DNA from: an uncultured Candidatus Saccharibacteria bacterium
Lineage (GTDB): Bacteria; Patescibacteriota; Saccharimonadia; Saccharimonadales; Saccharimonadaceae
Length of the DNA stretch: 64,000 bases
Assembly (NCBI GenBank): GCA_964593465.1
Contig: CAZQJY010000001.1
Span: forward strand, 74,480-138,479
Direction: 5' to 3'
The notes under the pieces were generated by a model. That model made no database searches, had not been told where the DNA came from, and saw only the letters and a program-made list of their open reading frames with translations. Below, piece after piece: positions 16,288 to 47,548 of the stretch. Position numbers and translations under genes: made by a program. Position 1 is the stretch's first letter. Every line of letters starts with the position of its first letter.

Positions 16288-16310
16288 TTACTTTTTGATC
16301 AGGAACAGAC

Positions 16311-24878: not shown

Positions 24879-24888
24879 ATCTATCCTC

Positions 24889-25290: not shown

Positions 25291-25676
25291 GAGAACACTG
25301 CCCCTGGTACCAAGAAATTAATAGCTGCGCCCATTAGTGCGTAGAGCACAAGGCCTATCACTACATTGCGGATTATCTCTTTGGCTTGATTTACCTGCTG
25401 CTCACTGTCGTGTGCAGATGCATAGAGAATCGACGCGTAAACAATAGCACCTACCGCCACTATACCGATGATGACCGTAAGGATACGGATAAACCACGCC
25501 AACATCTTAATGATGCCTTCCTTGCCCGTACCATCGCCGCAGTCGATGAGAGACGTTTTGATGCCTCCACAGCTAGCTGCTTGTGCCACATCGGGTGTCG
25601 CAAAAGCCAACATGCCGGCTGCACCGAGTCCAACGATGCCTGCCGCAAATATTGATAGTAGTTGTTTGATATTCAT
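25287..25676 (-). CDS. VirB2-like pilin (array gene 1)
   Basis: SCGGIKTSLIDC, IVYASILYASAHD..AKEIIRNVVIGL; start ATG 25676. Confidence 0.82.
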   Translation of the reverse strand: MNIKQLLSIFAAGIVGLGAAGMLAFATPDVAQAASCGGIKTSLIDCGDGTGKEGIIKMLAWFIRILTVIIGIVAVGAIVYASILYASAHDSEQQVNQAKEIIRNVVIGLVLYALMGAAINFLVPGAVFS

Positions 25677-25903
25677 AGTTCTTATGTACCAAGATATACT
25701 ATAGTGCAAATCACTGCAATACTATGCTAATTTTTTACTTTCAAGAGGCACGTCTATACTCTACAAAGACCTTGTGCTTATACTAGGCAATCGTGTAGAG
25801 TATAGACAGAGATGTCGGGGATAAAACAGACATACCATTTTATGAGTATTGCCGCTCAGTCGTGGCTACTGGGTGAGTTTCCTGACACCAAAGGAAAAGT
25901 GTC

Positions 25904-30646: not shown

Positions 30647-32481
30647 TGGCCAAAAAGCAAGACGCTGTCGATATTGCTGCGCAGCAGCGTGCACGTGAAC
30701 AGGCCGAGGTGGAACAGGCATTCCTCAAGGGTGTCAATACACTTCGTGACCTGATTGCTCCTAGTAGCCTAGAATTCCACGCCGATCATTTCCGCCTAGG
30801 TACCAAGTATGGCCGCACGCTCTACATCTACGGCTATCCACGCCAGCTCTACACTGGCTGGCTTAGTAGTATTATCAACATGGACGAAGTGCTCGACGTA
30901 AGTATGTTCCTCTACCCAGTGGACACGCAAGTAGTGATGAACAACCTCAAGAAAAAGGTGACTCAGCTCGAAGCTAGCATGGCTATTAATCAAGAAAAAG
31001 GCAAGACACGTGACCCAGGCCTTGAAGCTGCGCTGCAAGATGCAGAGGAACTGCGAGACGAGTTGCAGGTGGGTAGCGAGAAATTCTTCCGCTACGGCCT
31101 CTATATTACGCTATACTCCGACAACCTAGAGGATATGACGTTTGTTCAAAACAAGGTAGAAACATTGTTTGGCCAGCAGCTCGTATTTAGCAAAGTAGCA
31201 AGCAGCCAGCAGGAACAAGGGCTCAATAGTACCGTGCCACACCTGATGGATCAGTTGCAGATTCGCCGCAACATGAACACAGGTGCTATCTCGACGTCGT
31301 TCCCATTTACCAGCGCCGACCTGACGCAAGAGCAGGGTATCCTCTATGGTATAAACATGCACAACAACGGTCTGGTAATCTTTGACCGCTTTACACTAGA
31401 AAATGCCAACATGGTGGTGTTTGCAAAGTCTGGTGCTGGTAAATCATTTACCGTCAAACTCGAGGCAGTTCGCTCGATGATGGTGGGCGCAGATGTACTT
31501 ATTATCGACCCAGAAAACGAGTACCAGAAGCTTAGCGATGCCGTGGGCGGCAGCTACATTCGTCTGAGCCTCAACTCTGACGTGCGCATCAATCCGTTTG
31601 ACCTACCAAAGGTAATCGACACAGAAGATAGCGACGACGCGCTACGCGCCAACCTTGTAACACTCCACGGCTTGCTCCGTCTCATGCTTGGCGGTGCTAC
31701 AGCTACAAACACCAACGTGACACTTAGCCCAGAGCAAGAAGCCGACCTAGACCAGGCACTTATCGACACCTATGCACGTATCGGTATCACTAGCGATCCA
31801 CTCACACACACCAGCCCTCCACCAACTATGAGTGACCTCTATGATACATTACTCCATATGGGTGGCACCGGGCCACAGCTAGCGCAACGCCTACGCAAGT
31901 TTACGAGCGGTACGTTTGCGGGTATATTCTCACAGCAGAGCAACGTAGACATCAACAACTCTATGGTCGTCTTCAATATTCGCGACCTAGAGGACGAGCT
32001 ACGGCCAATTGCCATGTATATCGTACTCAGCCACATCTGGAACATTACTCGCTCACAGCGCAGGAAGCGTATGCTCATTGTGGATGAGGCATGGCAACTC
32101 ATGAAATACGAAGACTCAGCAAACTTCCTCTTTAGCCTCGCCAAGCGAGCTCGTAAATATTACCTGGGGATCACCACAATCACACAGGATGTCGAAGACT
32201 TTATGAGTAGCAAAATGGGCCGCGCTATCGTAGCCAACAGCTCTATGCAGCTACTACTCAAACAATCCGCTAGTGCAGTAGATGTACTCGGCGATGTATT
32301 TAAACTCACAGAAGAAGAGCGCAAGCGCCTCGGCAGCTTCCCGGTAGGGCAGGGGCTTTTCTTTGCGGGGCAAAATCACGTACATATACAGGTGATAGCT
32401 AGCCAGACAGAGACGCAACTCGTCACGACAAATCCGCTCGAAGCAGTTAAGCAGGAAAAACAGCAAGAACAGCAAGGGTAA
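30646..32481 (+). CDS. VirB4-like T4SS ATPase
   Basis: AKSGAGKS Walker A, IIDPENEY, INPFDL, IVDEAWQLM Walker B, KRARKY, TQDVEDF. Confidence 0.92.
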   Translation: MAKKQDAVDIAAQQRAREQAEVEQAFLKGVNTLRDLIAPSSLEFHADHFRLGTKYGRTLYIYGYPRQLYTGWLSSIINMDEVLDVSMFLYPVDTQVVMNNLKKKVTQLEASMAINQEKGKTRDPGLEAALQDAEELRDELQVGSEKFFRYGLYITLYSDNLEDMTFVQNKVETLFGQQLVFSKVASSQQEQGLNSTVPHLMDQLQIRRNMNTGAISTSFPFTSADLTQEQGILYGINMHNNGLVIFDRFTLENANMVVFAKSGAGKSFTVKLEAVRSMMVGADVLIIDPENEYQKLSDAVGGSYIRLSLNSDVRINPFDLPKVIDTEDSDDALRANLVTLHGLLRLMLGGATATNTNVTLSPEQEADLDQALIDTYARIGITSDPLTHTSPPPTMSDLYDTLLHMGGTGPQLAQRLRKFTSGTFAGIFSQQSNVDINNSMVVFNIRDLEDELRPIAMYIVLSHIWNITRSQRRKRMLIVDEAWQLMKYEDSANFLFSLAKRARKYYLGITTITQDVEDFMSSKMGRAIVANSSMQLLLKQSASAVDVLGDVFKLTEEERKRLGSFPVGQGLFFAGQNHVHIQVIASQTETQLVTTNPLEAVKQEKQQEQQG

Positions 32482-32484: not shown

Positions 32485-35400
32485 ATGTCTACTGCGCTCG
32501 ACGATGACAAGCTAAACCCTGCCAATACCTCCACTTGGGATGACGAAAGAGGTGCGCCAGCAATTAAAAGCGCCCGTGATGGAGAGCAGGCTAATTTTGA
32601 TCGTGAGCTCGACGGTATAACAAATGACTCCAATATATCCGACCTAAAAAATGCCGAAGGTAGCGGGGGCAACAAATCTGCAACTGACGGCAATATCGAG
32701 AAGAAAAAGGAAGAAGACGAAGAAGAGTCTGGTTTCAAAAAACGCCTCAAAAAATCTGGACCACTAATCGGTGTTGGTGGTATCATCGCAGCATTCATGG
32801 GTACTGCGAGCTTTTTTGGATTGCCTGCCGCACTACTTGTTACATTCGAGGGTGTTCTCACTAACGCAAACTCACACGATACGCGCGCTAATACAGTATT
32901 GATGCGTGGTCGCATGGGTGCAATGTTTAATAATATGCTTGGTACGGGCCGCGACTGCTCTGCCAGCAAAATCAAATGTAAAGTCGCAACCATGGGTAAT
33001 CGAGAGTTGAAGCGACTAAAGGCAATCGACGGCGTAGAGGTCGAGACCAATAAGTCCAAGAAAAACCCTTTTCGTAACAAAGTAAGAAAGATGTCTATAC
33101 CTCTAAGCGATGGCACGAAGGTAGAAGTGAAAAACGCCGCTGAGTTTAATCAGCTTATGCGTGATAACCCTGATTTTAGGCGAACAATGTTTCGTGTCCA
33201 GCATCCTATAGCCTCTGCATTTATAGGGGTTGGTAAAAATGGATGGTCAAAATTTAAAGACAAGATTCTCAAAAAATACAATATCAATATGGGAGATAAG
33301 TTTAAGGCATCCAAAAAAAAGGACCCTGAAGAGCGTGATAAAGAAAATAAAAAGAATATGAATGAAAAGACAGGTGCAGATACTGACAAGGATAAGAATT
33401 CGAGGATAGATAAGTATAAGAAGAAACTCAAAACCTCACAGCTTGGCAAAGCAGCCGACAAAGCCAAAGGTGGTATTAGAAAAGCTGCCATCAAATCTGG
33501 TGCTGGTGGTATAGCAGCGGGAGTTTCTTTGGCAACAATGCCAGTAGAATTAGCCTGTATGTCGTACAATATCATACGTGCATCGGTTGCTACAATCAAA
33601 GTAGCCTACATGAAAGATCTTGTGTCCTTTGCATATCCTTTTTTTCGCATAGCTAGCCAGTTACGCAATCAGGGAGATGTAGACCCTACCGAAGCAGAAT
33701 ATGTAGGTAAGAGAGTAGGTCTACAAGTAACCAAGTCTAGTGATAGCTCGATAGTTGGCAAAAATGCTACTGATTCTCAAGGTTTTCAGGCAGCCTTAAA
33801 CGGAGATGCCAGTAAACTAAAGGATCACACCAAGAAGCTTATGCCATGGTATATGGTTGGAGGAGTAAAGGGATCTGAGCTAATTAAAGGCGTACAAGAA
33901 ACCTTAGGTGGCAAAAAAAATATACGCAATATGTGTATAGCCGCAACTATAGCAGGGTTTGCAACAGGCGCAATTAGTGGAGTCGCCGCACTCGCGCAAT
34001 GCGCAACTATAGTTGGGTGTATTGCTCCGATTGCCGGAATGATACTAGGTTTTGTTGGTGGAGCGGTACTTGCAGATATTGTCGTAGACCAAGCTATAGA
34101 GGCTCTCACTAGCGAATCAGCTCAACGAATAGTCGAGGCGGGACTTGATGCCGATCTTGTAGGACCACCCCTAGGAGATGCTCTTGCCGGAGCAATGGCT
34201 ATCATGGGGACAGAAAAAGATCGCGCTTCTGGCCTTCGACCAGCAACAAGTACAAACGAAGTACTCGTCTACAACAAGACAACCGAGTCATATTACCAAG
34301 ACTACCTTGCTTTCGAGAAAGACGAGGCCGGAGAGACACCACTCAATCCATATAGAGAATTTTCGTTTGCAAATCAATTTATAAAAAGTATGTATCCTGA
34401 CGGGGTAAAAACAGATTCAATAGGAGGGATGCTTGGCAATCTCACGACAATCGCCATGACCCCAATGAAGCTCTTGGGCGGATCGGCCGCTTCTGCGGCG
34501 GCACGCAGTAGCGGATACTATATGCCAAATCCAATCACAGACGATATTGATAATCTTAAAAATGCTATTTCGCGTTGCGAAGATGTTCAGATGGAAGAAG
34601 TTGGATTTATATGCGATATGCACGGACGACCAGTGAGCGTCATAGACCCTAGGGTGCTAGGTTGTGCAGACAAGATGGCCAAGGGTGAAGATTTGATTGA
34701 TGTCGATGACGAAGGCACAAAGATGACAAAATGCTTCAGTGACATGATTGATTATATGACAGATAATGATTATATCGATGAGGAAGGCAAACCCACTAAA
34801 TTCGATACCTATAGCGACTGTGGGGGCGAGGAGGAGAAGAAGTGCGAGACAGACTACCTCTACTTCAAGGCATACTGCACAGAAGATAGGGTATACCCAT
34901 GGGGCACATCCGTCAGAGAGATAGATAGTGATATGATGAGCCCCAGCGCCACTAAGGCAAATAGCTGGAGAGATGGCGTACTATGCTCGGGCAAGAACGA
35001 AGCGGGAGAGGAAGATAGAGCATGGGCAAACAAAATCTATAACTTCTCATTCTACTACAACTTCTGCGAGTCACAGCTATCATTGCCAGAAAGTACAGAT
35101 GGATGCTGGGAAGACGAAGAAGCTGGGGGTAGCGGAAATGAAGCAAACACAAGCTCTGCTGAGAAAAATACTGGAGACTGGGAAGCGCCTGCAACTGGTA
35201 CGTGCGATGCGGCGTCCGGTGGATTCGGCTCCAGAGGTGGTGCGCACAAAGGTATCGATATATCAGCACCGTCAGGAACACCGCTTCTCGCGCCCACAAG
35301 TATGAAAATAATTTTTGTAGGAGTAAGTAGCGACGGTAGTACAGGTAACCAGGTCACCGCAACAGCAACCGACGGCTCAGATTATAGCTTTAGATTTATG

Positions 35401-35607
35401 CATATGCTCGAGAAAGGCCCGATGCAAGAAGGGCAAGAGGTGTCAAAGGGTACAGAGATTGGTAAAATAGGCAGCACAGGCGACTCTACCGGACCACACC
35501 TACACCTTGATGTATTCCCACCGAACGTTGATCCTATGTCATACGGCGGACAAGTTGATCCGATAAAAATATTCCAAGAACACGGAGTTACAATACCATG
35601 TCCATAA
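32485..35607 (+). CDS. giant membrane-anchored M23 peptidase (cassette 1)
   Basis: N-terminal TM, Gly/Ala hydrophobic stretches, C-terminal HKGIDI..HM..STGPHLH. Confidence 0.82.
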   Translation: MSTALDDDKLNPANTSTWDDERGAPAIKSARDGEQANFDRELDGITNDSNISDLKNAEGSGGNKSATDGNIEKKKEEDEEESGFKKRLKKSGPLIGVGGIIAAFMGTASFFGLPAALLVTFEGVLTNANSHDTRANTVLMRGRMGAMFNNMLGTGRDCSASKIKCKVATMGNRELKRLKAIDGVEVETNKSKKNPFRNKVRKMSIPLSDGTKVEVKNAAEFNQLMRDNPDFRRTMFRVQHPIASAFIGVGKNGWSKFKDKILKKYNINMGDKFKASKKKDPEERDKENKKNMNEKTGADTDKDKNSRIDKYKKKLKTSQLGKAADKAKGGIRKAAIKSGAGGIAAGVSLATMPVELACMSYNIIRASVATIKVAYMKDLVSFAYPFFRIASQLRNQGDVDPTEAEYVGKRVGLQVTKSSDSSIVGKNATDSQGFQAALNGDASKLKDHTKKLMPWYMVGGVKGSELIKGVQETLGGKKNIRNMCIAATIAGFATGAISGVAALAQCATIVGCIAPIAGMILGFVGGAVLADIVVDQAIEALTSESAQRIVEAGLDADLVGPPLGDALAGAMAIMGTEKDRASGLRPATSTNEVLVYNKTTESYYQDYLAFEKDEAGETPLNPYREFSFANQFIKSMYPDGVKTDSIGGMLGNLTTIAMTPMKLLGGSAASAAARSSGYYMPNPITDDIDNLKNAISRCEDVQMEEVGFICDMHGRPVSVIDPRVLGCADKMAKGEDLIDVDDEGTKMTKCFSDMIDYMTDNDYIDEEGKPTKFDTYSDCGGEEEKKCETDYLYFKAYCTEDRVYPWGTSVREIDSDMMSPSATKANSWRDGVLCSGKNEAGEEDRAWANKIYNFSFYYNFCESQLSLPESTDGCWEDEEAGGSGNEANTSSAEKNTGDWEAPATGTCDAASGGFGSRGGAHKGIDISAPSGTPLLAPTSMKIIFVGVSSDGSTGNQVTATATDGSDYSFRFMHMLEKGPMQEGQEVSKGTEIGKIGSTGDSTGPHLHLDVFPPNVDPMSYGGQVDPIKIFQEHGVTIPCP

Positions 35608-38144
35608 TGCGATTTATTCGATCGATAATACTTTTTTCTATGGCCACTACCATCGCCTTTACTTCTGTAACAGGGGCTACAGAGTACGGCTTCAGGGCAT
35701 CAAATGGAGTACTATACTATGATGAAGATGATAGGTGTGGCCCTAGCGGAGATAACTCCTCCAGCTCATCAGATGACGCGGATCTATCTAATGTATATAT
35801 CGTGGGAGACTCTATCACTGTAGGAGGATTGCGCTATGGTGATTATGTTGAAAAATTAAAATCTGCTGGTGCAAAAGAGGTACGGATTGTAGGGTCTAGC
35901 GGTGGTCGATTAGATGCGCCAGGTAGTGATGGGTGGATGGTTGAAACCGATGGTACACCCAAGCCACGTCCTGATAAACCCGGATTTGACTACATGCAAG
36001 AAGATAAAGATTTTATCAAAGACGCGACCACTGTCGTGATCGCACATGGCACCAATGGCATGCCGGGCGGCGCCAATGATATCCAAAAAGCTATCGATAT
36101 CATCAAGAACGACGCGGAGTCAAAAGCTAAAATATACTGGGTAGACATAGCTATTACTAATGGATCAGGATCAGGAACTCCAGGCACTGGTCCAGGAACA
36201 TACCATGACATATCCAGAAATCTCAATAAAGTTATTCACGACAATACCAGCAAGGGCTACTCTGTCATCTCATGGGCAAAGGCTGTCGATAGTGACTTTG
36301 ACCCGAATAAAAGCGAGCCTGCAAAAGACGCAAACAATATGCTTGGCGACGGTATTCACCCTGCCGACTACAATAAATATACAGATGTAATAGTAGACCA
36401 GCTCAAGGGCTCCGGGAACACCAATACGCCTTCAGATAACTCAGCCACCCCAGTAGCAACCGGCGAAGAGAACAGAGTTGTCATGACTAATGGCTTCACG
36501 GCAGGTAAAAACGGCCGTAAACGAATTATCGTGCACTGGACTGGCGCAAATTCGCTAGACAAAGCTCTAGAGTATAGAAGAAATACTGGAGACGGGTATC
36601 ATATACTCATAGATAAAGACGGCAAAGAAACCCGCACAGCAGAAGATGAACAAATAGCCTGGGGTGCGGCCGACTCAAACAAGGACAGCCTACATGTCTC
36701 AATGGTATCTGACGGATCCGAGAAGTTCGATCCAGAGTCTCCTCAAGTACGAGCACTCTCTGCACGTATTGGCAAATGGGCAAAACAGTACGACATACCC
36801 CTTAAGAAGATAAGTGGACCCGGTGTACTAGACAGTGGAGATGAAAAAGGTGTGCTTGGCCATCTAGATGTTCAAAATGCATCACCAGGTTCATACCCAA
36901 ACAAAGACCATCCAGATCCAGGAGAAGATTTTCCATGGGATGAAGTACTAAAAAACGCCGGCGGTGATACATCGGCGAGTGATGTTAGTGATGTATGTTG
37001 TGCTTCTGGCGGAAACACAGGCGGGTCAATAATTAACGCTAGTGTCGGAGGAGGAGGTGGCTGCGGTGTGGACAAAGATGGCGATCAAGGTAATAAGGAG
37101 CAGATCTGGTCATTTCTAATCAATAAGTTCGAAGGTGAAGGCTATAATCGAGATGAAGCCGAAAAAGCAGCCTCTGGAGTTATGGGGAATATGTGGCAAG
37201 AGACAGGTGGTAGTTTTAACCCTCATATTGACCACGGTATGGGTTGTAATAGCGGACCCGCAATAGGACTGAATCAGTGGTGTTTTGAGCGACAAACTAA
37301 TCTAAAAAACTTTGGCGAAGAAAAGGGTAATGGCTGGCAATGTCTGGGCACTCAATTAGAGTTTTTATGGGGTGAAATGACAACAACCCATAAGCATTTG
37401 TTCGAAGTTATGAAGGGTAAGCCTCCACGTGAAGCTGCCGAGATTTTCGACCATGGCGGGGATGGAGCGAGCCAGGGTATTGCAGGATTTGAAGAATCTT
37501 GGGATAGCCAAAAGGGAATGCATGTGCGCGCTGGATTTGCTGATGAAATTTACAAAGAGTTTACAGGTAAAGATCCTTCCACCCTCAGTAGCAATAGTAG
37601 TGCAAATTGCACCAACAAGAGCAGTACCGGTGCGCCAAACGGAAGCATCGCCGAAGTAGCAGAAGAGATGGCAAGCTGGGCCAAAGAGGCCGGAGGTACC
37701 TGCTACGCAAGTGAGGGTCACGGGACCCCTACCGAAGATATTAAACGAAGAGTAGAGAACCATTTTAGAGGGGTAGAAAACGGCGTCGACTGCTCCAGTT
37801 TTGTGCGAGCCGTCATGGTAACTGCTACAGGTAAAGATCCAGGGGAGAATGGGGCAAGGTCAAATACAACAACAGGAATCTGCAACTCACCATGGTACAA
37901 AGAAATATCTGAAAATGAAGCTGGCCCTGGCGATGTAATAGTAACCGGCGCAGGATGCAGCTCTCATGCAGCTGTCATCATCAAGGATGAGGGGAACGGA
38001 GTATTTACAACTGCCGACTCCCAAAGCCCTGGCTGCGGCCCAGATGGTTTTGGTCCTAATGTAGTTGAGGGTAGCCCGGGAAGCTGGAATAATGGTCAGC
38101 ACCCTAGAAAAATATTTAGGTTTGTCGAAAACACTCAAGTTTAA
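35598..38144 (+). CDS. secreted multi-domain cell-wall hydrolase: SGNH + amidase_2 + phage-tail-lysozyme-like + NlpC/P60 (cassette 1)
   Basis: signal peptide; GDSIT..HGTN..DGIHP; IIVHWT..YH.LID..LGHLDV..HPDPG; GVMGNMWQET..GLNQW; GVDCSSFV..PGD..H. Confidence 0.82.
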   Translation: MSIMRFIRSIILFSMATTIAFTSVTGATEYGFRASNGVLYYDEDDRCGPSGDNSSSSSDDADLSNVYIVGDSITVGGLRYGDYVEKLKSAGAKEVRIVGSSGGRLDAPGSDGWMVETDGTPKPRPDKPGFDYMQEDKDFIKDATTVVIAHGTNGMPGGANDIQKAIDIIKNDAESKAKIYWVDIAITNGSGSGTPGTGPGTYHDISRNLNKVIHDNTSKGYSVISWAKAVDSDFDPNKSEPAKDANNMLGDGIHPADYNKYTDVIVDQLKGSGNTNTPSDNSATPVATGEENRVVMTNGFTAGKNGRKRIIVHWTGANSLDKALEYRRNTGDGYHILIDKDGKETRTAEDEQIAWGAADSNKDSLHVSMVSDGSEKFDPESPQVRALSARIGKWAKQYDIPLKKISGPGVLDSGDEKGVLGHLDVQNASPGSYPNKDHPDPGEDFPWDEVLKNAGGDTSASDVSDVCCASGGNTGGSIINASVGGGGGCGVDKDGDQGNKEQIWSFLINKFEGEGYNRDEAEKAASGVMGNMWQETGGSFNPHIDHGMGCNSGPAIGLNQWCFERQTNLKNFGEEKGNGWQCLGTQLEFLWGEMTTTHKHLFEVMKGKPPREAAEIFDHGGDGASQGIAGFEESWDSQKGMHVRAGFADEIYKEFTGKDPSTLSSNSSANCTNKSSTGAPNGSIAEVAEEMASWAKEAGGTCYASEGHGTPTEDIKRRVENHFRGVENGVDCSSFVRAVMVTATGKDPGENGARSNTTTGICNSPWYKEISENEAGPGDVIVTGAGCSSHAAVIIKDEGNGVFTTADSQSPGCGPDGFGPNVVEGSPGSWNNGQHPRKIFRFVENTQV

Positions 38145-38160
38145 TAAGAGGAGATTCTCA

Positions 38161-38550
38161 GTGGATATAGAGTACATACAAAGTTGGATATATAGGTATC
38201 GTTTCTTATTAATCATCATTTTTGTCGTAATCATAGCGGGCTTAGTGGGCGTTACCTCAATGCAAAACTACCGTGATACACATATAGCAAAAGAAACGAT
38301 AAATAAAGTCGTTGATCCTGCAGAATTTGAAATAAAAAAAGTACTTCTGTCGAATGAAGGCTGGAAGTACGTACAGATTGCATATACACAAGGAGAACTC
38401 AAAGGCACGACCGCCGTAGCAATACTCCACGACGAAGCAGATAGAACAGTTCTTAAGGTTGGGCCCGGAACTAGTTTATCAAAAAGTGTTATGAAAAACG
38501 CAGGTGTACCAAATAATATCCAAGCGGAAATACTAAGAATATCCCTATAG
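38161..38550 (+). CDS. small single-TM accessory protein (cassette 1)
   Basis: SD GAGGAG then GTG 38161; N-terminal TM; ends in GPGT..GVP..I. Confidence 0.7.
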   Translation: MDIEYIQSWIYRYRFLLIIIFVVIIAGLVGVTSMQNYRDTHIAKETINKVVDPAEFEIKKVLLSNEGWKYVQIAYTQGELKGTTAVAILHDEADRTVLKVGPGTSLSKSVMKNAGVPNNIQAEILRISL

Positions 38551-38568
38551 TTCGCGAGAAAATTTATT

Positions 38569-40101
38569 ATGAATCGTAATCCACTAGATCCACTCAAAAA
38601 AATAATAATCTACACCACAGTAATAGGTGCCATTACCTTAAGTCTGTTATTTTTTATCATCAATTATACGTTTGCCTATATAGCCGTCGAGAAACCAGAC
38701 GGTATACGTGATACGCGCATATCACTGTACTACAACTCCTACCAGAAAGAGATTGGAAAACCAGGTCTCCATATAGTCAAAAGGGGGGCTGATGAAATAT
38801 CCGTCTGGTCTGGTGATAATATACATACATCGTCACCTTTTAAAACTCCTTGGTATGGATTCTCCTATAAAAAGATTAAAATTCAGTATGATAAGAATGC
38901 CGATAAAGCCGCGTATCAATCCATGCTTGATGATGCATGTGGTACGTACAGTAAAAATCTAGCCACCTTGTTGCAATATAAGTGTACAGCACCGAGGGCA
39001 TTAACTCGGTTCAATACGCCTGACCGCGGAGAGTGGACAACGAATAGCATATATTCTGAAATTTATTTTGCAAACATGTCACCAAAGCCTTATATAGGGG
39101 GGTTATTGGGCGTGGACTACGACCTACACCACCCGCCCAGCATAGTCGCTATTCGCGATAACGGCAGCACAAGAAAATTCAATCCACCAGAAGGATATAG
39201 GCAGGATACATTCTCATCCGCAAAGATCTTTACCGATACGCACACTACGGAAAATAATCGCTTTGTAATTGTAGAGTCAGACGGAACAATATATTTAGCC
39301 ACACCTACATCCGATGATTTGTCGGCTATAGAATATAAAAAGATTGAGACACCAAAAGATTACGATATAAACAACTCTCAAACAATATGCGACATCAAAA
39401 AAACTATTGTTGCATGTTACACAGGGCAGACGAGCACGCCAAAAGGAGCGGTAAGCTCTAAGCCAACGAGGTCATATATAACAATAATGAATTTCGAGAA
39501 TAATGATCGACGTGAAATCAAACTACAGGATAATTTAATTTTACAGAATTTCGTTATTACAACAGACAGTAGGATGTTTGGTAGTAATCGTGGTGAGTTA
39601 CTATACTTCAAACAAGATAGAAGTGGGGACAAAGCTTTAGGTATTAAAATGTCTAAAGAAATCTCGGCAATCTCGGCTGATGACGATATATACTTCATTA
39701 AAAACAATGGCATCTACAAGGCAAGCACTACCACCTTTGAGTCGTATCGAGTGTTCTATTCTCCAAGTATACAGCCGGTAAAACTTATGACAGTCGATAA
39801 AAAGGTGTTTACCATCGGTAAATCAACATTTATTAAAAACTATACCTATGCATGGCAACTCAATAACCAAGATAATACTACTAATTCTCCCCGAGCTATT
39901 GACCTACTTCCATCTGTACCAGAATCCTCAACATATGGCACAACTGACCTTTCAGAAGATAAGTTATACATAGTAACACCTCTCACTCGTTCATCAAGTA
40001 ATAAAGATACTGAAAGAATAAAGCGTAACACTCTCGACTATCTTAAGCTTATTGGAGTTAATACCGACGAATTTACTATCGTATATCCATACGACAAGTA
40101 G
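38569..40101 (+). CDS. single-TM extracellular accessory protein, probably beta-rich (cassette 1)
   Basis: 510 aa; N-terminal TM; AT-rich; C-terminal ..LDYLKLIGVNTDEFTIVY. Confidence 0.75.
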   Translation: MNRNPLDPLKKIIIYTTVIGAITLSLLFFIINYTFAYIAVEKPDGIRDTRISLYYNSYQKEIGKPGLHIVKRGADEISVWSGDNIHTSSPFKTPWYGFSYKKIKIQYDKNADKAAYQSMLDDACGTYSKNLATLLQYKCTAPRALTRFNTPDRGEWTTNSIYSEIYFANMSPKPYIGGLLGVDYDLHHPPSIVAIRDNGSTRKFNPPEGYRQDTFSSAKIFTDTHTTENNRFVIVESDGTIYLATPTSDDLSAIEYKKIETPKDYDINNSQTICDIKKTIVACYTGQTSTPKGAVSSKPTRSYITIMNFENNDRREIKLQDNLILQNFVITTDSRMFGSNRGELLYFKQDRSGDKALGIKMSKEISAISADDDIYFIKNNGIYKASTTTFESYRVFYSPSIQPVKLMTVDKKVFTIGKSTFIKNYTYAWQLNNQDNTTNSPRAIDLLPSVPESSTYGTTDLSEDKLYIVTPLTRSSSNKDTERIKRNTLDYLKLIGVNTDEFTIVYPYDK

Positions 40102-40148
40102 CAGTACTTCAATACAGACAATTACTTCTAGCAATTCCATTATATATA

Positions 40149-40177
40149 TTGCATAATAAGCAATTTTACGCTATACT
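40149..40177 (+). promoter_or_regulatory. internal sigma70-type promoter before cassette 2
   Basis: TTGCAT, 17 nt, TATACT. Confidence 0.5.
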
Positions 40178-40249
40178 CTATCTGTAACTACGTAATCTCG
40201 TGTGCCATAGTGTGGGAGCTTACGAGAGATGGGAAACTACCACTGCTCG

Positions 40250-43165
40250 ATGTCGACAAATTTAGACGACAATCCAGATAAATACGCACCTCGCTACGAC
40301 GGTGAGTATTTACGTAAGAGTGAGCAGCAGCCAGACACCCATACAACAGACGAGCAGCAGCGCCTAGATCCCCCTCAGACACACACAAATCCATCACCGC
40401 GAAGCCGCAAGCAATTGCTACAAAAAGCTTTTAGCAACATACGTGGCACGCGTTCCGCATCACCTATACTCCTCATTGCAATACTACTATTTGGTGGCGG
40501 TAGTATATTCACTGCTATATTAGCACCAGGTGCGACACTTTTGCATCTAGCCGATACACTCGAGCGTGACCTCAACAGTCAGCTCTCTGCAATGGACAAG
40601 ACCTCTATGCAGCTATGGCGCACGAAGCTCAAGCAAACAACCTCAGGCTCGTGCGGGGCAGTGAAGCTAAAATGTCGCTTTGCCACAGTCAATGAAGAAA
40701 AATTCAGCAAAGCCGTACAACGCGCAAATGGCGGACGCACAGACGTGCTCCGTGTTCACTACGACGAAACAAAAAAAGGAGTGCTTCCTGGCAGATCAGC
40801 CATAAAATCTTTTGAGTATATCGACGACAAAGGCGTCTCGCACTCACTTGATTCAGCTGAAAAGTTTACTAGCTTTATGAAAGAAAATACCGGATTTCGC
40901 TCGATGATGTACGGTGTGTATAGTCCGCGCTTTTCACCGTTTAAAAACAAAGCTACGATGAAGTTCTTGAACAAAAACAAAACCAGCTGGGCAAAAAAGC
41001 TTGTTGGCAAAAACGAAAAGGAAGTTGACGCCAGTGCCAAGCGAGCTATAAAAGGCACAACCACACTAGCAGTAACAAAACTTACACCCGTAACAGACGA
41101 AGACGGCAACCAGACGGGGGAATACGAAGACGAGAAGGGTAATAAATACAGCGCCGACGAAGCCAAGGGCTTACTCGAACAAGAAGAGCGGATCAAAAAA
41201 AGCCCGACAACACAAAAGGTACTTGGTAACATGGCAAAGGGTGTACTGATCACAGGTCTTGCCGACACAGCCTGCACCATCTATAACACCTCGCGTGCAG
41301 TAAGTGTCAGCGCCAAAACTATTCGTGCCGCCGAATTGGTACGCACAGGTAATATCTACGCTATAAACGAACCTCATGCTATCAAAGCCGAGATGGCCAC
41401 GCCAGAAACGGTACAATACGCCTCAAACAACATCATGGCCATGGAACCGCGCACAAAAGTAGCCGACGAATCCCAGCTTGCCAGTACACCGGCTGGTCAA
41501 AAGCTTGCTGAAATAGATAATCCTAGTGGTGGCCAGACCGGTATGGATTCTCCTATATACAAAATATCGAGCAGCCAAGACTACCCAGAAAAGCTTGATG
41601 CCGAGACACAAGCACTGCTACCTGGCGGTGGACTCACGGGCACACTTGATAGTGTTAATACTGACATCGCAAACGCACTTGGATCTAACGATCCCGCTAC
41701 ACTATCCGAACGCTGCAAGATAATCCAAAACCCAGTTGTGCGTGGTGGCTCGCTCATTATCGGTATTGCAGCGGGTGTTGGTAGTTTTGGTACAAGTACG
41801 GCTTTTTCCGTAGCAGGTAGTGCGGCACTTGGGCTCGCCCTACCATACCTGACAGCACAGCTTGCTGATATGGTCGCAGGTAATGTCACCGAGGGACTCA
41901 AGGGTAAGAATCTTGTAAGCGCTGTATCTGTGGGGGCATCGCTTACCTACAACGGTATTGCACGCAGCCAAGGCATGATGACGATGAGCCCCGAAAATAT
42001 GGCTGATTATCAAAACGGTAAACGTGAGTCACTTGTAGCATATGACGAGATAGACAAGATGGCAGCACGCAAAAACCCTTTTGATGTGACAAATCAATTC
42101 TCATTTACCGGCTCGCTAGTACGCAGCAGTCTGCCAATCGCAGCAACAATTCGCAGCAATGGCGCAGGCTTAATTCAATCTCTCCCACAAATAGCATCAG
42201 TTGCAGCCAAAGCAATACTGCCGATAGCTGGCGCCGCAAGCGAACGAGATACACTCGTCCGTGCAGAGAGGTATAAGATGTGCGACGATGTGGACTACAA
42301 GGCACTTGGCGACGATGTAGCTGTTGATATAACTTGTGTGATGAACTTTGGCCTGCCACAAGAAGCAATGTCACTAGAAATAGATGAGGCGACAGATTAT
42401 ATGATTGCCAATGGCGAGGTGGATGCTAATGATATATCTGGCGATCCTGTTGACAATGGCAACACCTGGAATTACGCCAAATACTTAGAGCAGTGTCGCG
42501 ACAGTCAACCAGGTGCTGTCGAAGATATAGAGTCCGAACCAACCAACGGTGCCGGTTGCACTGATGAGAAAAATTTTGAGAAAAATTATCACTATGCGAA
42601 GTTTGAGGTGATTCGAAATTCTGATGACGGTATAAGCCAAGAGCTTCCCGGCATGGACAGTGGCGCACAACAAGAGTTTACTGATGGCTCTGCAGGTGAA
42701 ATTGGACTCGACGGCTGGGCATATCCAACCGACAAAAACAAGACAGAGGTATCGAGTAATTTTGGTCCTCGTGACGGAAAACAACACAATGGTGCTGATC
42801 TTACAGGGCCTCTTGGTACACCTATTTATGCCGCGAGAGACGGCGAGGTGATTGCTGCGGGACCCGCTAGCGGCTTTGGTAACTGGATTGTCCTTCAGCA
42901 CGACGTCAACGGCAAGCGTGTCGACACCGTCTACGGCCATATGCAGCGCAGCGGCGTGCTGGTGCGCGTAGGGCAACGAGTAAAAGCTGGCGAGATGATT
43001 GGCCGCATTGGCAATGAAGGCCAAAGCACCGGACCACACCTTCATTTTGAAGTATGGGATGGCGGGCGTAGCGATATGGAAGGTGGGTCTGGCGGCAAGG
43101 CAGTCGATCCGGCATCGTTTCTCGAAAAAGCATCAAGTAGCAACAGTAATGCGAGGGATGTTTAA
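40250..43165 (+). CDS. giant membrane-anchored M23 peptidase (cassette 2)
   Basis: start MSTNLDD (ATG 40250) mirrors MSTALDD of the paralog; HNGADL..YGHM..STGPHLHFEV. Confidence 0.85.
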   Translation: MSTNLDDNPDKYAPRYDGEYLRKSEQQPDTHTTDEQQRLDPPQTHTNPSPRSRKQLLQKAFSNIRGTRSASPILLIAILLFGGGSIFTAILAPGATLLHLADTLERDLNSQLSAMDKTSMQLWRTKLKQTTSGSCGAVKLKCRFATVNEEKFSKAVQRANGGRTDVLRVHYDETKKGVLPGRSAIKSFEYIDDKGVSHSLDSAEKFTSFMKENTGFRSMMYGVYSPRFSPFKNKATMKFLNKNKTSWAKKLVGKNEKEVDASAKRAIKGTTTLAVTKLTPVTDEDGNQTGEYEDEKGNKYSADEAKGLLEQEERIKKSPTTQKVLGNMAKGVLITGLADTACTIYNTSRAVSVSAKTIRAAELVRTGNIYAINEPHAIKAEMATPETVQYASNNIMAMEPRTKVADESQLASTPAGQKLAEIDNPSGGQTGMDSPIYKISSSQDYPEKLDAETQALLPGGGLTGTLDSVNTDIANALGSNDPATLSERCKIIQNPVVRGGSLIIGIAAGVGSFGTSTAFSVAGSAALGLALPYLTAQLADMVAGNVTEGLKGKNLVSAVSVGASLTYNGIARSQGMMTMSPENMADYQNGKRESLVAYDEIDKMAARKNPFDVTNQFSFTGSLVRSSLPIAATIRSNGAGLIQSLPQIASVAAKAILPIAGAASERDTLVRAERYKMCDDVDYKALGDDVAVDITCVMNFGLPQEAMSLEIDEATDYMIANGEVDANDISGDPVDNGNTWNYAKYLEQCRDSQPGAVEDIESEPTNGAGCTDEKNFEKNYHYAKFEVIRNSDDGISQELPGMDSGAQQEFTDGSAGEIGLDGWAYPTDKNKTEVSSNFGPRDGKQHNGADLTGPLGTPIYAARDGEVIAAGPASGFGNWIVLQHDVNGKRVDTVYGHMQRSGVLVRVGQRVKAGEMIGRIGNEGQSTGPHLHFEVWDGGRSDMEGGSGGKAVDPASFLEKASSSNSNARDV

Positions 43166-45235
43166 ATGAAAAAGCTTCGTATTATCTCGCTGCTATTTGC
43201 TGCTATCCTAATCACGCAAGAAGTGATTTTTCCTATCGACGTAATGGCGATATCCGACCCAAATAGGTTAATACGTCAAGATGCGTGGGGTATTGATGAC
43301 GAATGCGGCGTACCAACAAGCACCAGTGAATCTACCGATAACCTGCAGGAGGTAGTGAACGAAATTGTAGACGACGCAAAAAATAAAGGTGTCAATGCAT
43401 CCATAAAAATAAGTGGTGATCAATCCGCCTCTGCCGGATCATCAAGTCAGATGCCATCTGCGTCTATTATAAAACTCTTGGTTGCTGTAGCACTGATGAA
43501 AAAAGATATACCCCTCAATGACGTACGCACAGACCTAGAAACTATGATTCGAGACTCTGATAATGCGGCCGCCAATAGACTTATCAATGCCGCTGGCGGG
43601 TTTGATGCTATCAATACAGCAGCTCGTGAACTAAACATAGAGAATGATATTCATATCGGACGAAAAATGCTCGAAACACCCACAGGTTCCGACCCAAACA
43701 CTATCTCATCTACAGGCTCCGATATACTACTTGGCGCTATCAAAAAGTCTGCTGATAGCAGTGATCCTGTGAGTAAAGAGTACGCAACTGCTATCATCTC
43801 TGCTATGAAGAGCCAAACTGTAAACACGAAATGGGGCTCTTCTGGTATTCCTAGGCAACATATCGCCCATAAAACAGGTGAACTTGGTGGTGCGCAGCAT
43901 GATGTGGGATATTTTCTCAAAGATGATAGGTGGCTAGCCGTAACAATCCTCACGAACGAGCCTAATAGTAATGGCTCTCAGGGTATAGAGGTGGTGAAAA
44001 ATGCAGCCAAAAAAATCTGGGACGCATGGGAAAAAGGAGGTGAGATAGGCGACGACAATCAAGAGTCTGAAACTGTAGGCTCTCAAGACGAGCTAACTAC
44101 TAGTAGCTCATGCTGTCTCGACCCAAGCGCCAGCCGCGTTGCTCTAGCCGGCAATAACAATGTCGAAAAAATACTCAACTTCTATATGCGTAAAGGCCTC
44201 AACCTTGCCCAAGCAAGCGGTATCGTTGGTAATATGATGCAAGAGTCTGGCCTCAAACCAAATATCGTACAGGGTGGACGACTTATAGCACCAGGCGAAA
44301 ACTATCGCATGCAAAACGGTGTAGGGTTTGGGCTGATTCAATGGACATTCACTGGCAGACAAAAACCACTCCAGGATCATGTCGATAAAATGGGTGTTAA
44401 GAATACCGACCTCAGTGGGCAATTGAGTTTTACATGGGTAGAATTAACCGGGCCGTATCTTTCAACGTTGAATAATCTCCGGCGTACCAACGATCCTATA
44501 CAGGCGGCTGTTGTTGTACACGATGGCTACGAAAAATCTGCTGACTCTGCAGGGCAGGTGCGAAGTGTGCGTGGTGGTAATGCAAAGAAAATTTTCGACC
44601 AATACAAAAACGCGCCGGCATTAGCTGGAAGCTCCGCTGCAAGCGCCATGAATAATCCGTCGGGATTAGAAGAAGTTGACGCACATGGGCAAGCTGACAC
44701 AGAAACAGCAGCTAGTGTGGACGAAAGTGGTGAATCCACAGGAGGCTGCGGCAGTGCAGCTGGCGGCAACTTCATAGATACTCTCAAAGCCTACGCTTGG
44801 CCAACATGGAAAGGTCTAGACACTAAACCCACCAACTCTTACGCAGGAGCTGTATCAAGAGCTTTGAGTGGAGGATTTTATGTTGGCGGCATCAGGTATA
44901 GAGGGATTGACTGTGGTGGATTTGTTACACTTCTAGTACGTGATAGTGGTTATGACAAGGGCTATAACTTCGATGGCAAAGGAGGCCCCACAAGCTCTCA
45001 GGAACAATGGATGCGCTCAAACTGGCAATCACTCGGGTCGAGCTCTAGTATTAACGCTGGTACGTTGCAACCTGGCGACGTTGCAATTAATTCAACTCAC
45101 ACGTTTATATACGTTGGAGATGTTCCAGGGTTTGGATCTAAAATAGCGTCCGCCTCACTCGATGAACGTGCACCAATGGCCGATACGCAACAGAGTCCAA
45201 CTCAACCGGGTTATAATTGGTACAGGAAAAAATAA
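43166..45235 (+). CDS. secreted multi-domain hydrolase: class A beta-lactamase-like serine peptidase + phage-tail-lysozyme-like + NlpC/P60 (cassette 2)
   Basis: signal peptide; SIIK, SDN, HKTG; GIVGNMMQESG..GLIQWT; GIDCGGFV..PGD..H. Confidence 0.85.
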   Translation: MKKLRIISLLFAAILITQEVIFPIDVMAISDPNRLIRQDAWGIDDECGVPTSTSESTDNLQEVVNEIVDDAKNKGVNASIKISGDQSASAGSSSQMPSASIIKLLVAVALMKKDIPLNDVRTDLETMIRDSDNAAANRLINAAGGFDAINTAARELNIENDIHIGRKMLETPTGSDPNTISSTGSDILLGAIKKSADSSDPVSKEYATAIISAMKSQTVNTKWGSSGIPRQHIAHKTGELGGAQHDVGYFLKDDRWLAVTILTNEPNSNGSQGIEVVKNAAKKIWDAWEKGGEIGDDNQESETVGSQDELTTSSSCCLDPSASRVALAGNNNVEKILNFYMRKGLNLAQASGIVGNMMQESGLKPNIVQGGRLIAPGENYRMQNGVGFGLIQWTFTGRQKPLQDHVDKMGVKNTDLSGQLSFTWVELTGPYLSTLNNLRRTNDPIQAAVVVHDGYEKSADSAGQVRSVRGGNAKKIFDQYKNAPALAGSSAASAMNNPSGLEEVDAHGQADTETAASVDESGESTGGCGSAAGGNFIDTLKAYAWPTWKGLDTKPTNSYAGAVSRALSGGFYVGGIRYRGIDCGGFVTLLVRDSGYDKGYNFDGKGGPTSSQEQWMRSNWQSLGSSSSINAGTLQPGDVAINSTHTFIYVGDVPGFGSKIASASLDERAPMADTQQSPTQPGYNWYRKK

Positions 45236-45894
45236 TGCAATACGAGCCAGCTTACTACATCGGAAAATATCGTACTCATATATTTGTGACATTTATCGTG
45301 CTATTAGTGGCTATTATTAGTTTTGTTATATATACGCAGTGGCGAAATTCTATCGAGCGAGCCGGCAAGATTGCCGTGCCTGTAGAGGTAGCTCCACGAG
45401 ATGCAAGTGTAAAATTAGGTGATGATTCTATAACTAGTCGCGGCACAGCCTGGATTACACCAGGCGAATACGAGGTCGTGGTGACACGCGAGGGATTTAA
45501 ATCACAAACACGTACAATTCGCGTATCCGAAGATGCTGAGCCATATATTTATATCGCACTCGCTGGCAACACAGACAAGGCAAAGAAGTGGCAAGAGTCG
45601 CACCAGTCGGAATACAAACGTCTCGAGCTACTCACAATTCAAAAATCGCGCGAATACAATACCAGGTTCAAGTCAAACAACCCAATTGTAAATATTTTAC
45701 CAATCAAAGATCCGTATTATTCCATAGATTATCGCAATAATAATGACAAGAATATTGAGCTAATTATTTATGGCACATCACCGCAATATAGGCAGGTAGC
45801 TGTGGATTTCCTGCGCAAACAGGGATACGATCCGATAGACTACAAAGTGACATATGAGGGATTTAAAAATCCGCTAGGAAACAACGATGAATAG
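45235..45894 (+). CDS. single-TM PEGA-like accessory protein (cassette 2)
   Basis: TAATG overlap with the hydrolase; TM; PGEYEVVVTREGF PEGA-like motif; LP..DPYYSIDY..AVDFLRKQGYDP. Confidence 0.78.
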   Translation: MQYEPAYYIGKYRTHIFVTFIVLLVAIISFVIYTQWRNSIERAGKIAVPVEVAPRDASVKLGDDSITSRGTAWITPGEYEVVVTREGFKSQTRTIRVSEDAEPYIYIALAGNTDKAKKWQESHQSEYKRLELLTIQKSREYNTRFKSNNPIVNILPIKDPYYSIDYRNNNDKNIELIIYGTSPQYRQVAVDFLRKQGYDPIDYKVTYEGFKNPLGNNDE

Positions 45895-46504
45895 TGTACG
45901 AGCTGGCAAGATTACTCGAATGATACTCATTGTCATTGCTGTAACTGCATGTCTTTATGGTGTGTGGGCATATATATTTTCGTTTCAAACAGTCACTTTC
46001 ACATTTGATGATAAGCTTGGCTACATAGAAATAGAGAATAGTAGTAAACAAAAATTGTACCCAAAAAACAATCAAGTCGCACGACTCAAAAAGGGTGAGT
46101 ACACAGCCAAAAATATTGGCAAAAACATCACCAAAGATACACGAAAAATCACTATAGCCAGTGGTATACAGAGCGTAGAGACATCATTTAGCTATACCGA
46201 AAAATATTTAGAAAAGCTATATGCAGCAGAAAAGGAAACTATCTACAAGGTACTTCTGCGTGAGTATCCAGAAATTAGCAAGTTGTATGTAATTCGCACA
46301 GACAGACTCTACGCTCGCGGTAATGTGTTTGGCGCGACACTCATTGCTAAAGATCAAAATAGTGATAATGCAGATACCTTGCGAGTAGTTATGCAAAAAA
46401 AATCCGATAGATGGGAAGTGCAATCCAAGCCGCCAACACCAATCCTTAGCGCAGCAGAATACCCGGATATACCGCGTGACGTCTTACTTAAAATCAACAA
46501 TTAG
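45887..46504 (+). CDS. single-TM accessory protein (cassette 2)
   Basis: N-terminal TM; LKKGEY; C-terminal WEV..PP..YPDIP..L. Confidence 0.75.
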   Translation: MNSVRAGKITRMILIVIAVTACLYGVWAYIFSFQTVTFTFDDKLGYIEIENSSKQKLYPKNNQVARLKKGEYTAKNIGKNITKDTRKITIASGIQSVETSFSYTEKYLEKLYAAEKETIYKVLLREYPEISKLYVIRTDRLYARGNVFGATLIAKDQNSDNADTLRVVMQKKSDRWEVQSKPPTPILSAAEYPDIPRDVLLKINN

Positions 46505-46507: not shown

Positions 46508-47548
46508 TTATTGAAGCTCTATAACCGCAGCGCTATCGATACCCGTATAGGCATTTGTACTAGTAATAAACATTTGATTACCTCGGCATTTTTCCGCCAA
46601 GCGTTGTTGTCGTGATTCGTCGAGCTCAGCAAACACATCATCAAGCAATACGATAGGTGAGAGGCCAGTAGACTCGGATGCAACATCTACTTCGATAAAC
46701 TTGAGCGCCAGAATAATACTACGGATCTCTCCGCGCGATGCTACCGCCACTGCAGGCGATCCATTAAACTCGGATACTATATCATGCCTGTGTGGACCGA
46801 TACTTGTAAATCCTAGATAGGTGTCGCGTTCAAAATTTGTATGCAAGTCGTTCGTGAGCTTCTGTTCGATATTATCTATCATTGTGTGTGAATAATGGAG
46901 CGCTACAGCGTCATTTACCCCGGCAATAGTAGCATATGTATCGCCAAGTGACGTGTTTATGCGCTCTACCACTTGTGTACGTTCACGGATAATTTCGGCG
47001 CCATACTCTGCCAGCGACACATCCCATATAAACACCTCATCGCGCGATATATTTGAACTTTTAAGTAGAGCATTGCGTTGTCTTAGCGCTCGTTCATATT
47101 TGCGTACTGTAGTAGGGTAGTGTGGGTTGAGCTGCGAGATAAACGTATCTATAAACTGTCGACGACGCGTTGGTGAACCATGAAGTAGGCGTAGTTCGTC
47201 TGGCTCAAAGAGTATTACGGGATACTTTGCCCCAGGTGTCATGCGGTAGCTTTTTTTGCCGTTGATATCAAATTGCTTACGCCCAGACTGCTTAGTGCTA
47301 TCAAATTTTATAGTGCGCACATCATCACCAGCACTAACATCCACTCGCCACCATGTCTCGTCTCGTGCTAAAAAATCTACATCACTACCACGAAAAGAAG
47401 TGCCGCGAAGTGCGATATTAAGCGCTTCTAGAAGCGTTGTCTTGCCGGAGCCATTGCGTCCGGTAATCACGCTTACACGAGACGATATATCAAACCGCGC
47501 ATCATTATGAGAGCGAGTGTGTTGGACGCGCAAGCTTGTTATGTTCAT
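46508..47548 (-). CDS. recF: DNA replication and repair protein RecF
   Basis: GRNGSGKTTLLEA, LFEP..L..GSP.RRR.F.D, GPHRHD, SRGE.RS, LLDDVFAELD. Confidence 0.93.
   Translation of the reverse strand: MNITSLRVQHTRSHNDARFDISSRVSVITGRNGSGKTTLLEALNIALRGTSFRGSDVDFLARDETWWRVDVSAGDDVRTIKFDSTKQSGRKQFDINGKKSYRMTPGAKYPVILFEPDELRLLHGSPTRRRQFIDTFISQLNPHYPTTVRKYERALRQRNALLKSSNISRDEVFIWDVSLAEYGAEIIRERTQVVERINTSLGDTYATIAGVNDAVALHYSHTMIDNIEQKLTNDLHTNFERDTYLGFTSIGPHRHDIVSEFNGSPAVAVASRGEIRSIILALKFIEVDVASESTGLSPIVLLDDVFAELDESRQQRLAEKCRGNQMFITSTNAYTGIDSAAVIELQ

Follow-up and report, generated by a model that had tools for sequence, protein, structure and literature searches.

The closest described counterpart of the locus analyzed here lies in Candidatus Southlakia epibionticum ML1, where four genes of a type IV secretion system (T4SS) locus, SEML1_0004 to SEML1_0007, were all scored essential (ES) by transposon sequencing in co-culture (Wang 2023, Tables S1/S2; PMC10633639). 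As annotated in that source, SEML1_0007 is a giant protein with a Hedgehog/DD-peptidase tip that is C-terminal and LAS-type, SEML1_0006 has two lysozyme domains and a Cys proteinase, SEML1_0005 is a PEGA protein and SEML1_0004 combines a prealbumin-like with a BT0923-like domain (PMC10633639). Quinonero-Coronel et al. 2025 also pointed out that homologues of a peptidase and a lysozyme encoded 3' of virB4 are essential (PMC12102498). Here, we analyzed a stretch of 64,000 nucleotides (the window) from the ~0.93 Mb genome of an uncultured Candidatus Saccharibacteria bacterium, in which two four-gene sets, A and B, encode giant peptidases, multi-domain hydrolases and single-TM (transmembrane) proteins next to virB4. 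Matched by position and annotation, the ML1 module resembles that of the window in lying between virB4 (SEML1_0008) and recF and in encoding the same four kinds of protein. The window differs from ML1 in having two copies instead of one, M23 tips instead of Hedgehog/DD-peptidase tips, other extra domains, and a copy A that is swapped between strains and between species.

Hydrolases of the VirB1-like type offer a second comparison. CwlT of ICEBs1, PrgK of pCF10, TraG of pIP501 and TcpG of pCW3 are likewise encoded in a T4SS operon after the gene for VirB4, and the window hydrolases share this operon trait, being encoded together with VirB4, a VirB6-like protein and PrgI. As here, VirB1-like hydrolases are multi-domain proteins that join a glycosidase to a Cys- or metallo-peptidase behind an N-terminal anchor or signal, and PrgK, itself large and anchored, includes a LytM domain. 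Unlike them, the window enzymes use a PF18013 muramidase rather than the SLT or CwlT type (SLT does occur in some relatives), the work is divided among a giant carrier, a secreted enzyme and two accessory proteins, and the domains are polymorphic. A third comparison is with gp13 of phage phi29, which sits at the tip of a machine for DNA delivery and cuts a Gram-positive wall from its outer side. The lysozyme domains are homologous, and the pairing of lysozyme with M23 in gp13 recurs in hydrolases of the window's relatives. In contrast to gp13, the genes described here are cellular T4SS-operon genes rather than virion parts, and the window M23 domains sit on separate, membrane-anchored giants.

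The two sets belong to a single run of + strand genes from 25.9 to 46.5 kb, in which genes for a VirB6-like protein, PrgI, a 391-aa protein and VirB4 are followed by eight more, and which ends at the convergent recF-dnaN-dnaA. Set A consists of the giant A1 (1040 aa, 32485-35607; identified from its open reading frame (ORF), a Pfam M23 match and alignment to B1), the hydrolase A2 (848 aa, 35598-38144; Pfam, its C-terminal family and a signal-peptide-like N-terminus), the small bitopic protein A3 (129 aa from the GTG at 38161, 38161-38550, in an ORF that opens at 38065) and the bitopic protein A4 (510 aa, 38569-40101; an ORF of a narrow, fast-evolving family). Set B consists of the giant B1 (40250-43165; 971 aa from the conserved MSTNLDD start or 978 aa from the ATG at 40229; ORF and Pfam M23), the hydrolase B2 (689 aa, 43166-45235; Pfam, NCBIfam and PDB searches), the bitopic PEGA-type protein B3 (219 aa from the ATG at 45235, 45235-45894, in an ORF that opens at 45217; weak PEGA and CarboxypepD_reg matches) and the bitopic protein B4 (205 aa, 45887-46504; homologues and an AlphaFold2 (AF2) model). 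The conserved distal boundary of the module is recF (46508-47548, − strand; an ORF with synteny in ~100 loci), after which come dnaN and dnaA. Thus, the two four-gene cassettes that the original prediction had placed at 32485-40101 and 40250-46504 are correct in both coordinates and gene order, and they do adjoin the T4SS, both sets being co-oriented with virB4 and A1 directly abutting it.

Genes within each set are separated by −19 to +18 nt. A1 starts 3 nt past the virB4 stop and overlaps A2 by 10 nt, B2 starts on the base right after the B1 stop, and the last 8 nt of B3 are shared with B4; the one sizeable gap among the set genes separates A4 from B1 (~130-150 nt). No terminator-like sites were found on the + strand between 30 and 47 kb. 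From this arrangement, virB6-prgI-virB4 and both sets are probably co-transcribed and translationally coupled. An independent Logan assembly from another sample (L131, SRR23005868) has an identical layout with the same gene starts, so the layout is not an assembly artefact, and its gene calls fix the starts of A3 and B3.

The giants are alignable end to end at 23% identity (E 2e-21), and one profile, of a conserved helical module of ~800 aa termed gN, matches both. In common they have an MST-LDD start, one strong TM segment and, around residue 500, a hydrophobic stretch rich in Gly and Ala, and the M23 catalytic motifs HxxxD and HxH are intact in A1 (Pfam E 3e-19) as well as B1 (Pfam E 5e-29). 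A1 is predicted to comprise an N-terminal cytoplasmic tail, a TM segment at ~94-121, a helical ectodomain of ~750 aa that carries the Gly/Ala-rich stretch as a hydrophobic hairpin at 485-538, and the C-terminal M23 domain at aa 920-1011. The motifs by which the giants had initially been grouped are indeed present alongside M23, although their spacing was slightly miscounted. An AF2 model of B1 (pLDDT 78) has a large helical body, and outside the M23 tip no structural match to this model was found in PDB or BFVD; long alignments to phage internal proteins were structurally meaningless (TM-score ~0.12).

The extreme N-terminus of the giants, MST.LDD..NP (32485-32530 and 40250-40295), falls in the predicted cytoplasmic tail, and a weaker form, M-A-x7-D-x3-NP, is visible in the consensus of 53 giants. 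Through this conserved peptide the giants may dock on, or be recognised by, the T4SS motor. A third gN paralogue, of 892 aa, is found outside the window (G000 contig C7, 37461-44536). It keeps the C..C, AC..Y and NP..F motifs, has no catalytic tip, and lies directly 3' of a further gene of the VirB6-like kind (652 aa, with a weak match to TrbL) and a ClpB-like AAA+ gene; relatives also have similar proteins of ~900 aa. Because the pairing of VirB6-like and gN genes recurs, it suggests that the two families may work together.

Both hydrolases have a signal-peptide-like N-terminus and a PF18013 phage-tail lysozyme domain (E 9e-20 and 9e-29), and the profile of their core is homologous to the phi29 gp13 tail enzyme (PDB 3csq, E 9e-26). 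In A2, the predicted order is an SGNH-like esterase (aa 69-255), Amidase_2 (308-442), the lysozyme (499-620) and an NlpC/P60-like Cys peptidase (~710-830). In B2, a domain like class-A beta-lactamases and PBP-A (aa 123-263), in which SxxK, SDN and KTG are all present, precedes the lysozyme (332-480) and the Cys peptidase (~560-680). The C-terminal Cys peptidases of A2 and B2 form one family (hhalign 100%) with conserved DCGxFV and GHT motifs, while the match to the Pfam NlpC/P60 family is itself weak (E 0.002). A common lysozyme and NlpC/P60 core with different extra domains is therefore borne out by PF18013 in both proteins and the hhalign result. The amidase, glycosidase, endopeptidase, serine peptidase and esterase chemistries attributed to the two sets are likewise real as predictions, the esterase being the weakest, with an SGNH match (E 2e-4) under the Pfam cut-off. 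Cys468 and Cys671 of A2 (36999-37001 and 37608-37610) bracket PF18013 and are (nearly) invariant across 77 hydrolases; the extra domains are inserted outside this bracket, which fits the earlier description of these enzymes as Cys-linker hydrolases.

Is this a system in its own right? We compared what follows virB4 in 20 relatives and 80 further Saccharimonadales genomes, all of them metagenome-assembled genomes (MAGs), using VirB4 as the locus query and labelling genes with profiles seeded from the window. Nearly all of the ~100 loci share the order virB4, gN giant, often an ORF of ~150-180 aa, PF18013 hydrolase, accessory genes, recF and dnaN, the accessory slot holding either B3 and B4 (~210 aa each) or one protein of ~430-550 aa. 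A single module copy is the norm. The gene-order and domain traits of the SEML1-type module are present in the window: the position between virB4 and recF/dnaN on the virB4 strand near oriC, gN with a peptidase, and PF18013 with a Cys peptidase. The accessory trait, a PEGA-type protein with a prealbumin/alpha-beta protein, is found in set B, while set A has divergent substitutes. The region had originally been put forward as a candidate new system; this does not hold, as the single-copy module is standard in Saccharimonadales and its counterpart is already annotated and essential in S. epibionticum. We did not find module polymorphism, duplication or slot replacement described in the literature searched, which included PMC10633639 and PMC12102498, both searched by term together with their supplementary tables. 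Relative to that literature, what appears to be new is the second copy, the polymorphic catalytic ends, the replacement of copy A and an imported A1-A2 allele.

The catalytic ends vary widely. Among the last 300 aa of 91 giants, ten Pfam families occur on the conserved carrier, including M23 (27 giants), VanY (25), CHAP (5) and C39_2 (4); M14, BSP, EEP, SGNH and M15_4 were each seen on one giant, and no domain was recognised on the remainder. PF18013 is kept in 71 of 77 hydrolases, to which M23, C39_2, CHAP, SGNH, Amidase_2/3, GH3 and glucosaminidase domains, as well as SLT, beta-lactamase-like, M15, GH43, GDPD and EEP domains, are added in many combinations. Thus, the content of the cassettes proved as swappable as had been proposed, in both of the large proteins. 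One single-cassette locus (L038 (G021), 12133-18109) has a CHAP-tipped giant and a hydrolase with GDPD, EEP, PF18013 and a C39-like peptidase, an enzyme set that looks to be aimed at teichoic-acid-type polymers besides peptidoglycan.

Tandem modules were found only in the window's genus (G000-G005 and L051) and in the lineages L053 and L055. There are no DNA repeats between the two sets of the window, and the B-type giants form a clade (100% support) whose sister group consists of the second giants from L053 and L055. The duplication is thus by its sequence signature an old one, with anciently diverged copies. A recent tandem duplication was rejected on the same grounds, together with the 23% identity of A1 and B1. 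The recF-proximal copy B behaves as the vertically inherited copy: compared with four congeners, identity is 48-74% for B1, 55-79% for the B2 core, 53-72% for B3 and 43-54% for B4, alongside 92-94% for VirB4, 81-90% for dnaN and 74-77% for recF. In L053 (11900-16300), the giant and the hydrolase next to virB4 are each broken up into a pair of ORFs, which could be a pseudogenised variable copy or a MAG assembly error.

Copy A presents a different picture. In each congener the best match of A1 is that species' B1, at 23-24% identity; A2 and its positional counterparts have only single domains in common; and among the four congeners, counterparts of A3 and A4 occur in G005 only. Set A content differs in kind among the five species, the slot of A2 holding SGNH, Amidase_2 and lysozyme domains in the window, SGNH, beta-lactamase-like and SLT domains in G005, SLT and M23 in G004, GH3 and lysozyme in G003, and lysozyme and Amidase_3 in G002. 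In the gN tree, A1 is sister to the giant of L056 (96% support) and groups with other genera, apart from four other A giants of its genus, and the approximately unbiased (AU) test rejects a tree in which the A giants of the genus are monophyletic (delta lnL 130, p = 1.4e-6). The best match of A1 anywhere is only 33% identical (L053), in a set that also holds an A4-type gene at 31%. Together, the sequences indicate that copy A, next to virB4, occupies a slot in which recombination exchanges one allele for another, divergent one.

The same slot differs between strains. The conspecific strain represented by L131 is 99-100% identical to the window in dnaN, recF, B1, B2 and A4, whereas A1 and A2 have 88% nucleotide identity without indels. 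Synonymous divergence (dS) is 0.59 for A1 and 0.66 for A2 compared with 0.02-0.04 for flanking genes, and the ratio of nonsynonymous to synonymous divergence (dN/dS) of A1 and A2 is 0.04-0.05. This is the signature of a divergent yet functional A1-A2 allele imported between conspecific strains, and not that of relaxed selection. Positive selection was considered as the source of the divergence and is excluded by a dN/dS of 0.04-0.05 at a dS of ~0.6. In the same comparison, diverged patches are also seen in the gene for the 391-aa protein (~93%) and in virB4 (31737-32236, 88.8%), against 99.9% for dnaN. Because these patches lie at 29737-32236, recombination tracts extend past the 5' end of set A and reach genes of the T4SS core.

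The accessory genes had been described as pairing by their C-termini across the cassettes in swapped order, a claim that stood in part. Full-length comparisons of A3 with B4 and of A4 with B3 were negative by BLAST, by a 157-sequence hidden Markov model and by hhalign. When hhalign was restricted to domains, the C-termini of A3 and B4 aligned over 64 columns in register (probability 63%, score 27.3), compared with 9.9 +/- 2.1 for shuffled columns and a maximum of 19.0 in 200 shuffles, and A3 directly matches a B4-family protein of another genome by BLAST (E 1e-3). The A4 C-terminus and B3 share only a 23-column motif (score 26.4 against a shuffle null of 9.3 +/- 1.7). Thus, there is moderate support from sequence for paralogy of A3 and B4, while the pairing of A4 with B3 comes down to the motif. 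In the sister species G002, both accessory genes of set A are plainly of the B3 and B4 types and follow the order of set B (E 1e-26 to 1e-34), so the four-family paralogy is real for the genus, and A3 and A4 of the window genome are, as far as their sequences indicate, divergent substitutes. An A3 homologue is present in G005. The A4 family has only 3 clusters among 5.8 billion proteins and 5 members in the surveyed loci, and G+C is 0.39 at 38001-40000 (A3-A4) compared with 0.45-0.49 in neighbouring genes.

B3 belongs to a large family found at the same position across the order, and B4 has 898 representative homologues. The AF2 model of B4 (pLDDT 96.6) shows a TM helix, a transthyretin/PEGA-like beta-sandwich and an alpha2-beta4 domain, in agreement with the annotation of SEML1_0004, and Foldseek with this model gave matches to transthyretin-like domains. 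The sandwich segment is common to B3 and B4 (probability 94%). We also considered B4 as the missing homologue of VirB8, a T4SS component with an NTF2-like ectodomain after an N-terminal TM segment, and found no support for it, since Foldseek matched TcpC (3ub1) only at E 0.1 with probability 0.3 and the profile had no PDB match. A separate NTF2-like protein, SEML1_0012, is listed for ML1 (PMC10633639).

What might these proteins do? Sequence features place the giants and hydrolases outside the cytoplasm (by anchor or Sec signal), with intact catalytic motifs and in an operon with the T4SS core. We consider it probable that the region holds two diverged copies of the wall-hydrolase module of the chromosomal, origin-adjacent, Gram-positive-type Saccharimonadales T4SS, whose enzymes open the walls of both the epibiont and its host; here we infer the host-wall target, the physical association with the T4SS and the accessory roles. 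In such a module, gN would be a T4SS-associated carrier presenting an exchangeable peptidase at its tip, the secreted hydrolase would supply glycosidase, amidase and peptidase activities, and the bitopic beta-sandwich proteins would position or restrain the enzymes. The enzymes would open peptidoglycan and associated polymers where the T4SS or pilus crosses the epibiont's own wall and, as the more important target, the wall polymers where it meets the wall of the host. Copy B would remain stable, while the variable copy A would broaden or shift the spectrum of wall chemistries open to breaching. Varied chemistries, which in relatives include enzymes aimed at non-peptidoglycan wall polymers (GDPD, GH43), and allele exchange under purifying selection suggest that the relevant substrate varies, pointing to the host wall and not only to the cell's own. 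Saccharibacteria are ultra-small and live on other bacteria, and the exchanged copy may help decide which hosts can be breached. The locus thereby bears on how Saccharibacteria select and enter their Actinobacterial hosts, and on what their essential, relaxase-less T4SS does. It joins VirB4, an ultra-conserved motor, to the fastest-changing and most domain-shuffled genes of the operon, and the window's genus offers a natural pair of a stable and an exchangeable copy.

Several points weigh against a module that opens both walls. Gram-positive conjugative T4SSs need a VirB1-like hydrolase just to cross their own wall, so essentiality in S. epibionticum is not proof of a host-wall target. The Sec signals mean that the hydrolases need not depend on the T4SS, and the structure search with gN gave no match tying it to a known T4SS part. 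The homology of A4 and B3 is weak, a short motif only. Divergence is deep, at most 33% identity to anything, so that no donor of copy A was recognised among the sequences compared, and fast divergence contributes alongside exchange.

The first of these points can be carried further, to a reading in which both sets are housekeeping VirB1-type autolysins for assembly of the T4SS or pilus, the second set being redundancy and the variability drift. Their position in the operon is that of PrgK after PrgJ/VirB4, the muramidase and Cys-peptidase architecture is like that described for CwlT (PMC12102498), and each large protein has a Sec signal or membrane anchor. A constant own wall does not, however, predict GDPD, GH43, GH3, SGNH, VanY, M14 and beta-lactamase-like domains at one locus, nor does it predict that copy A is replaced from one congener to another, or that an A1-A2 allele is imported and kept under purifying selection (dN/dS 0.04-0.05), and we regard this reading as unlikely, if the most serious of the competing ones. 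Were the enzymes to serve self-wall assembly only, their extreme polymorphism would itself need a new explanation. The polymorphism also recalls the polymorphic toxins (Rhs/CDI, the LXG proteins of type VII secretion systems, and the Tae/Tge effectors of type VI secretion systems), which similarly have a conserved carrier with exchangeable C-terminal enzyme tips, small downstream genes, extra tandem cassettes and alleles exchanged by recombination. Taken strictly, the giants and hydrolases would then be antibacterial toxins directed at competitors or hosts, with A3/A4 and B3/B4 as cognate immunity proteins shielding the wall of the producer. This agrees with the variable tips and with small genes directly downstream, and the accessory type does track the C-terminal peptidase of the hydrolase in 40 of 40 single-copy loci (NlpC with B3 and B4; M23 with the long protein). 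Across ~60 closed cassettes (L031-L130), an NlpC/P60-like end goes with B3 and B4 in 38 of 41 cases and an M23 end with a protein of at least 400 aa in 9 of 10. By the VirB4 tree, though, this co-variation rests on 2-4 independent switches, too few for significance, and B3 and B4 stay constant across loci with differing enzymes, including B2 with or without its beta-lactamase-like domain. The second domain of SEML1_0004 is annotated BT0923-like, a superfamily that SCOP groups in the BLIP-like fold together with an inhibitor protein; no inhibitor-like match for B4 was found by Foldseek or profile search, and membrane-anchored beta-sandwich proteins are also compatible with scaffolding. For the accessory genes, the role of a structural or regulatory partner is just as possible. 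In contrast to polymorphic toxins, moreover, accessory genes here are constant across different tips, the single-copy module is not accessory but needed for growth, and toxicity and immunity are putative. A strict effector-immunity array, which the original prediction had likened the region to, is therefore improbable.

A further explanation has the enzymes mainly release host wall fragments (amino sugars, peptides, glycerophosphate) to feed an auxotrophic epibiont, the link to the T4SS being no more than co-regulation. Exo-acting or trimming domains do occur in relatives (NagZ-like GH3, GDPD, VanY, M14 and amidases), and Saccharibacteria are described as reduced in biosynthetic capacity (PMC10633639). 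The anchored giants and the near-universal, tight coupling to virB4 suggest instead a role at the machine itself, and no transporter genes are linked within the module, so that nutrient harvesting has very little probability. Opening of both walls at the T4SS remains the preferred account, and a bolder form of it is a tentative idea that we hold to be doubtful. In this form, the virB4-proximal slot would be a host-range determinant: homologous recombination anchored in conserved virB4 and gN sequences would swap whole or partial cassettes, the enzymes on the gN stalk would fit the wall chemistry of a particular host (peptidoglycan, teichoic acid or arabinogalactan), and the accessory proteins of each cassette would be its cognate regulators, sparing the epibiont's own wall from attack. 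Where a lineage has two cassettes, one would be retained as a stable opener of general use and the other would be an exchangeable specialist. Should cassette type follow the wall chemotype of the host, the host range of uncultured bacteria of the candidate phyla radiation could be read from sequence, and the enzymes would be a source of narrow-spectrum wall hydrolases.

Upstream of the two sets, the T4SS core begins with the VirB6-like polytopic membrane protein (895 aa, 25904-28591, + strand), an ORF without a Pfam match at E<0.01 whose family was found at 99 related loci by jackhmmer and whose positional counterpart is SEML1_0011/0013, annotated TrbL/VirB6-like. It is followed on the same strand by PrgI (VirB3-like, 275 aa, 28606-29433; PF12666, E 1.1e-13) and by the 391-aa protein (29471-30646), a conserved T4SS-locus ORF of no assigned function for which the Pfam search gave no match and jackhmmer gave 78 matches in related loci. 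Next comes the VirB4 ATPase (611 aa, 30646-32481, + strand), identified by Pfam matches to P-loop_TraG (E 6e-29), AAA_10 and DUF87 and showing 72-94% identity across the order. For the ML1 locus, no recognisable relaxase or coupling-protein genes are reported in the source cited for it (PMC10633639), so the Saccharibacteria T4SS locus is probably not conjugative. A VirB2-type pilin gene (21081-21605, + strand; PF18895, E 9e-8) and an array of six small ORFs on the opposite strand (23261-25709, − strand) both lie upstream of the VirB6-like gene, in agreement with the pilin arrays reported for Saccharibacteria T4SS loci.

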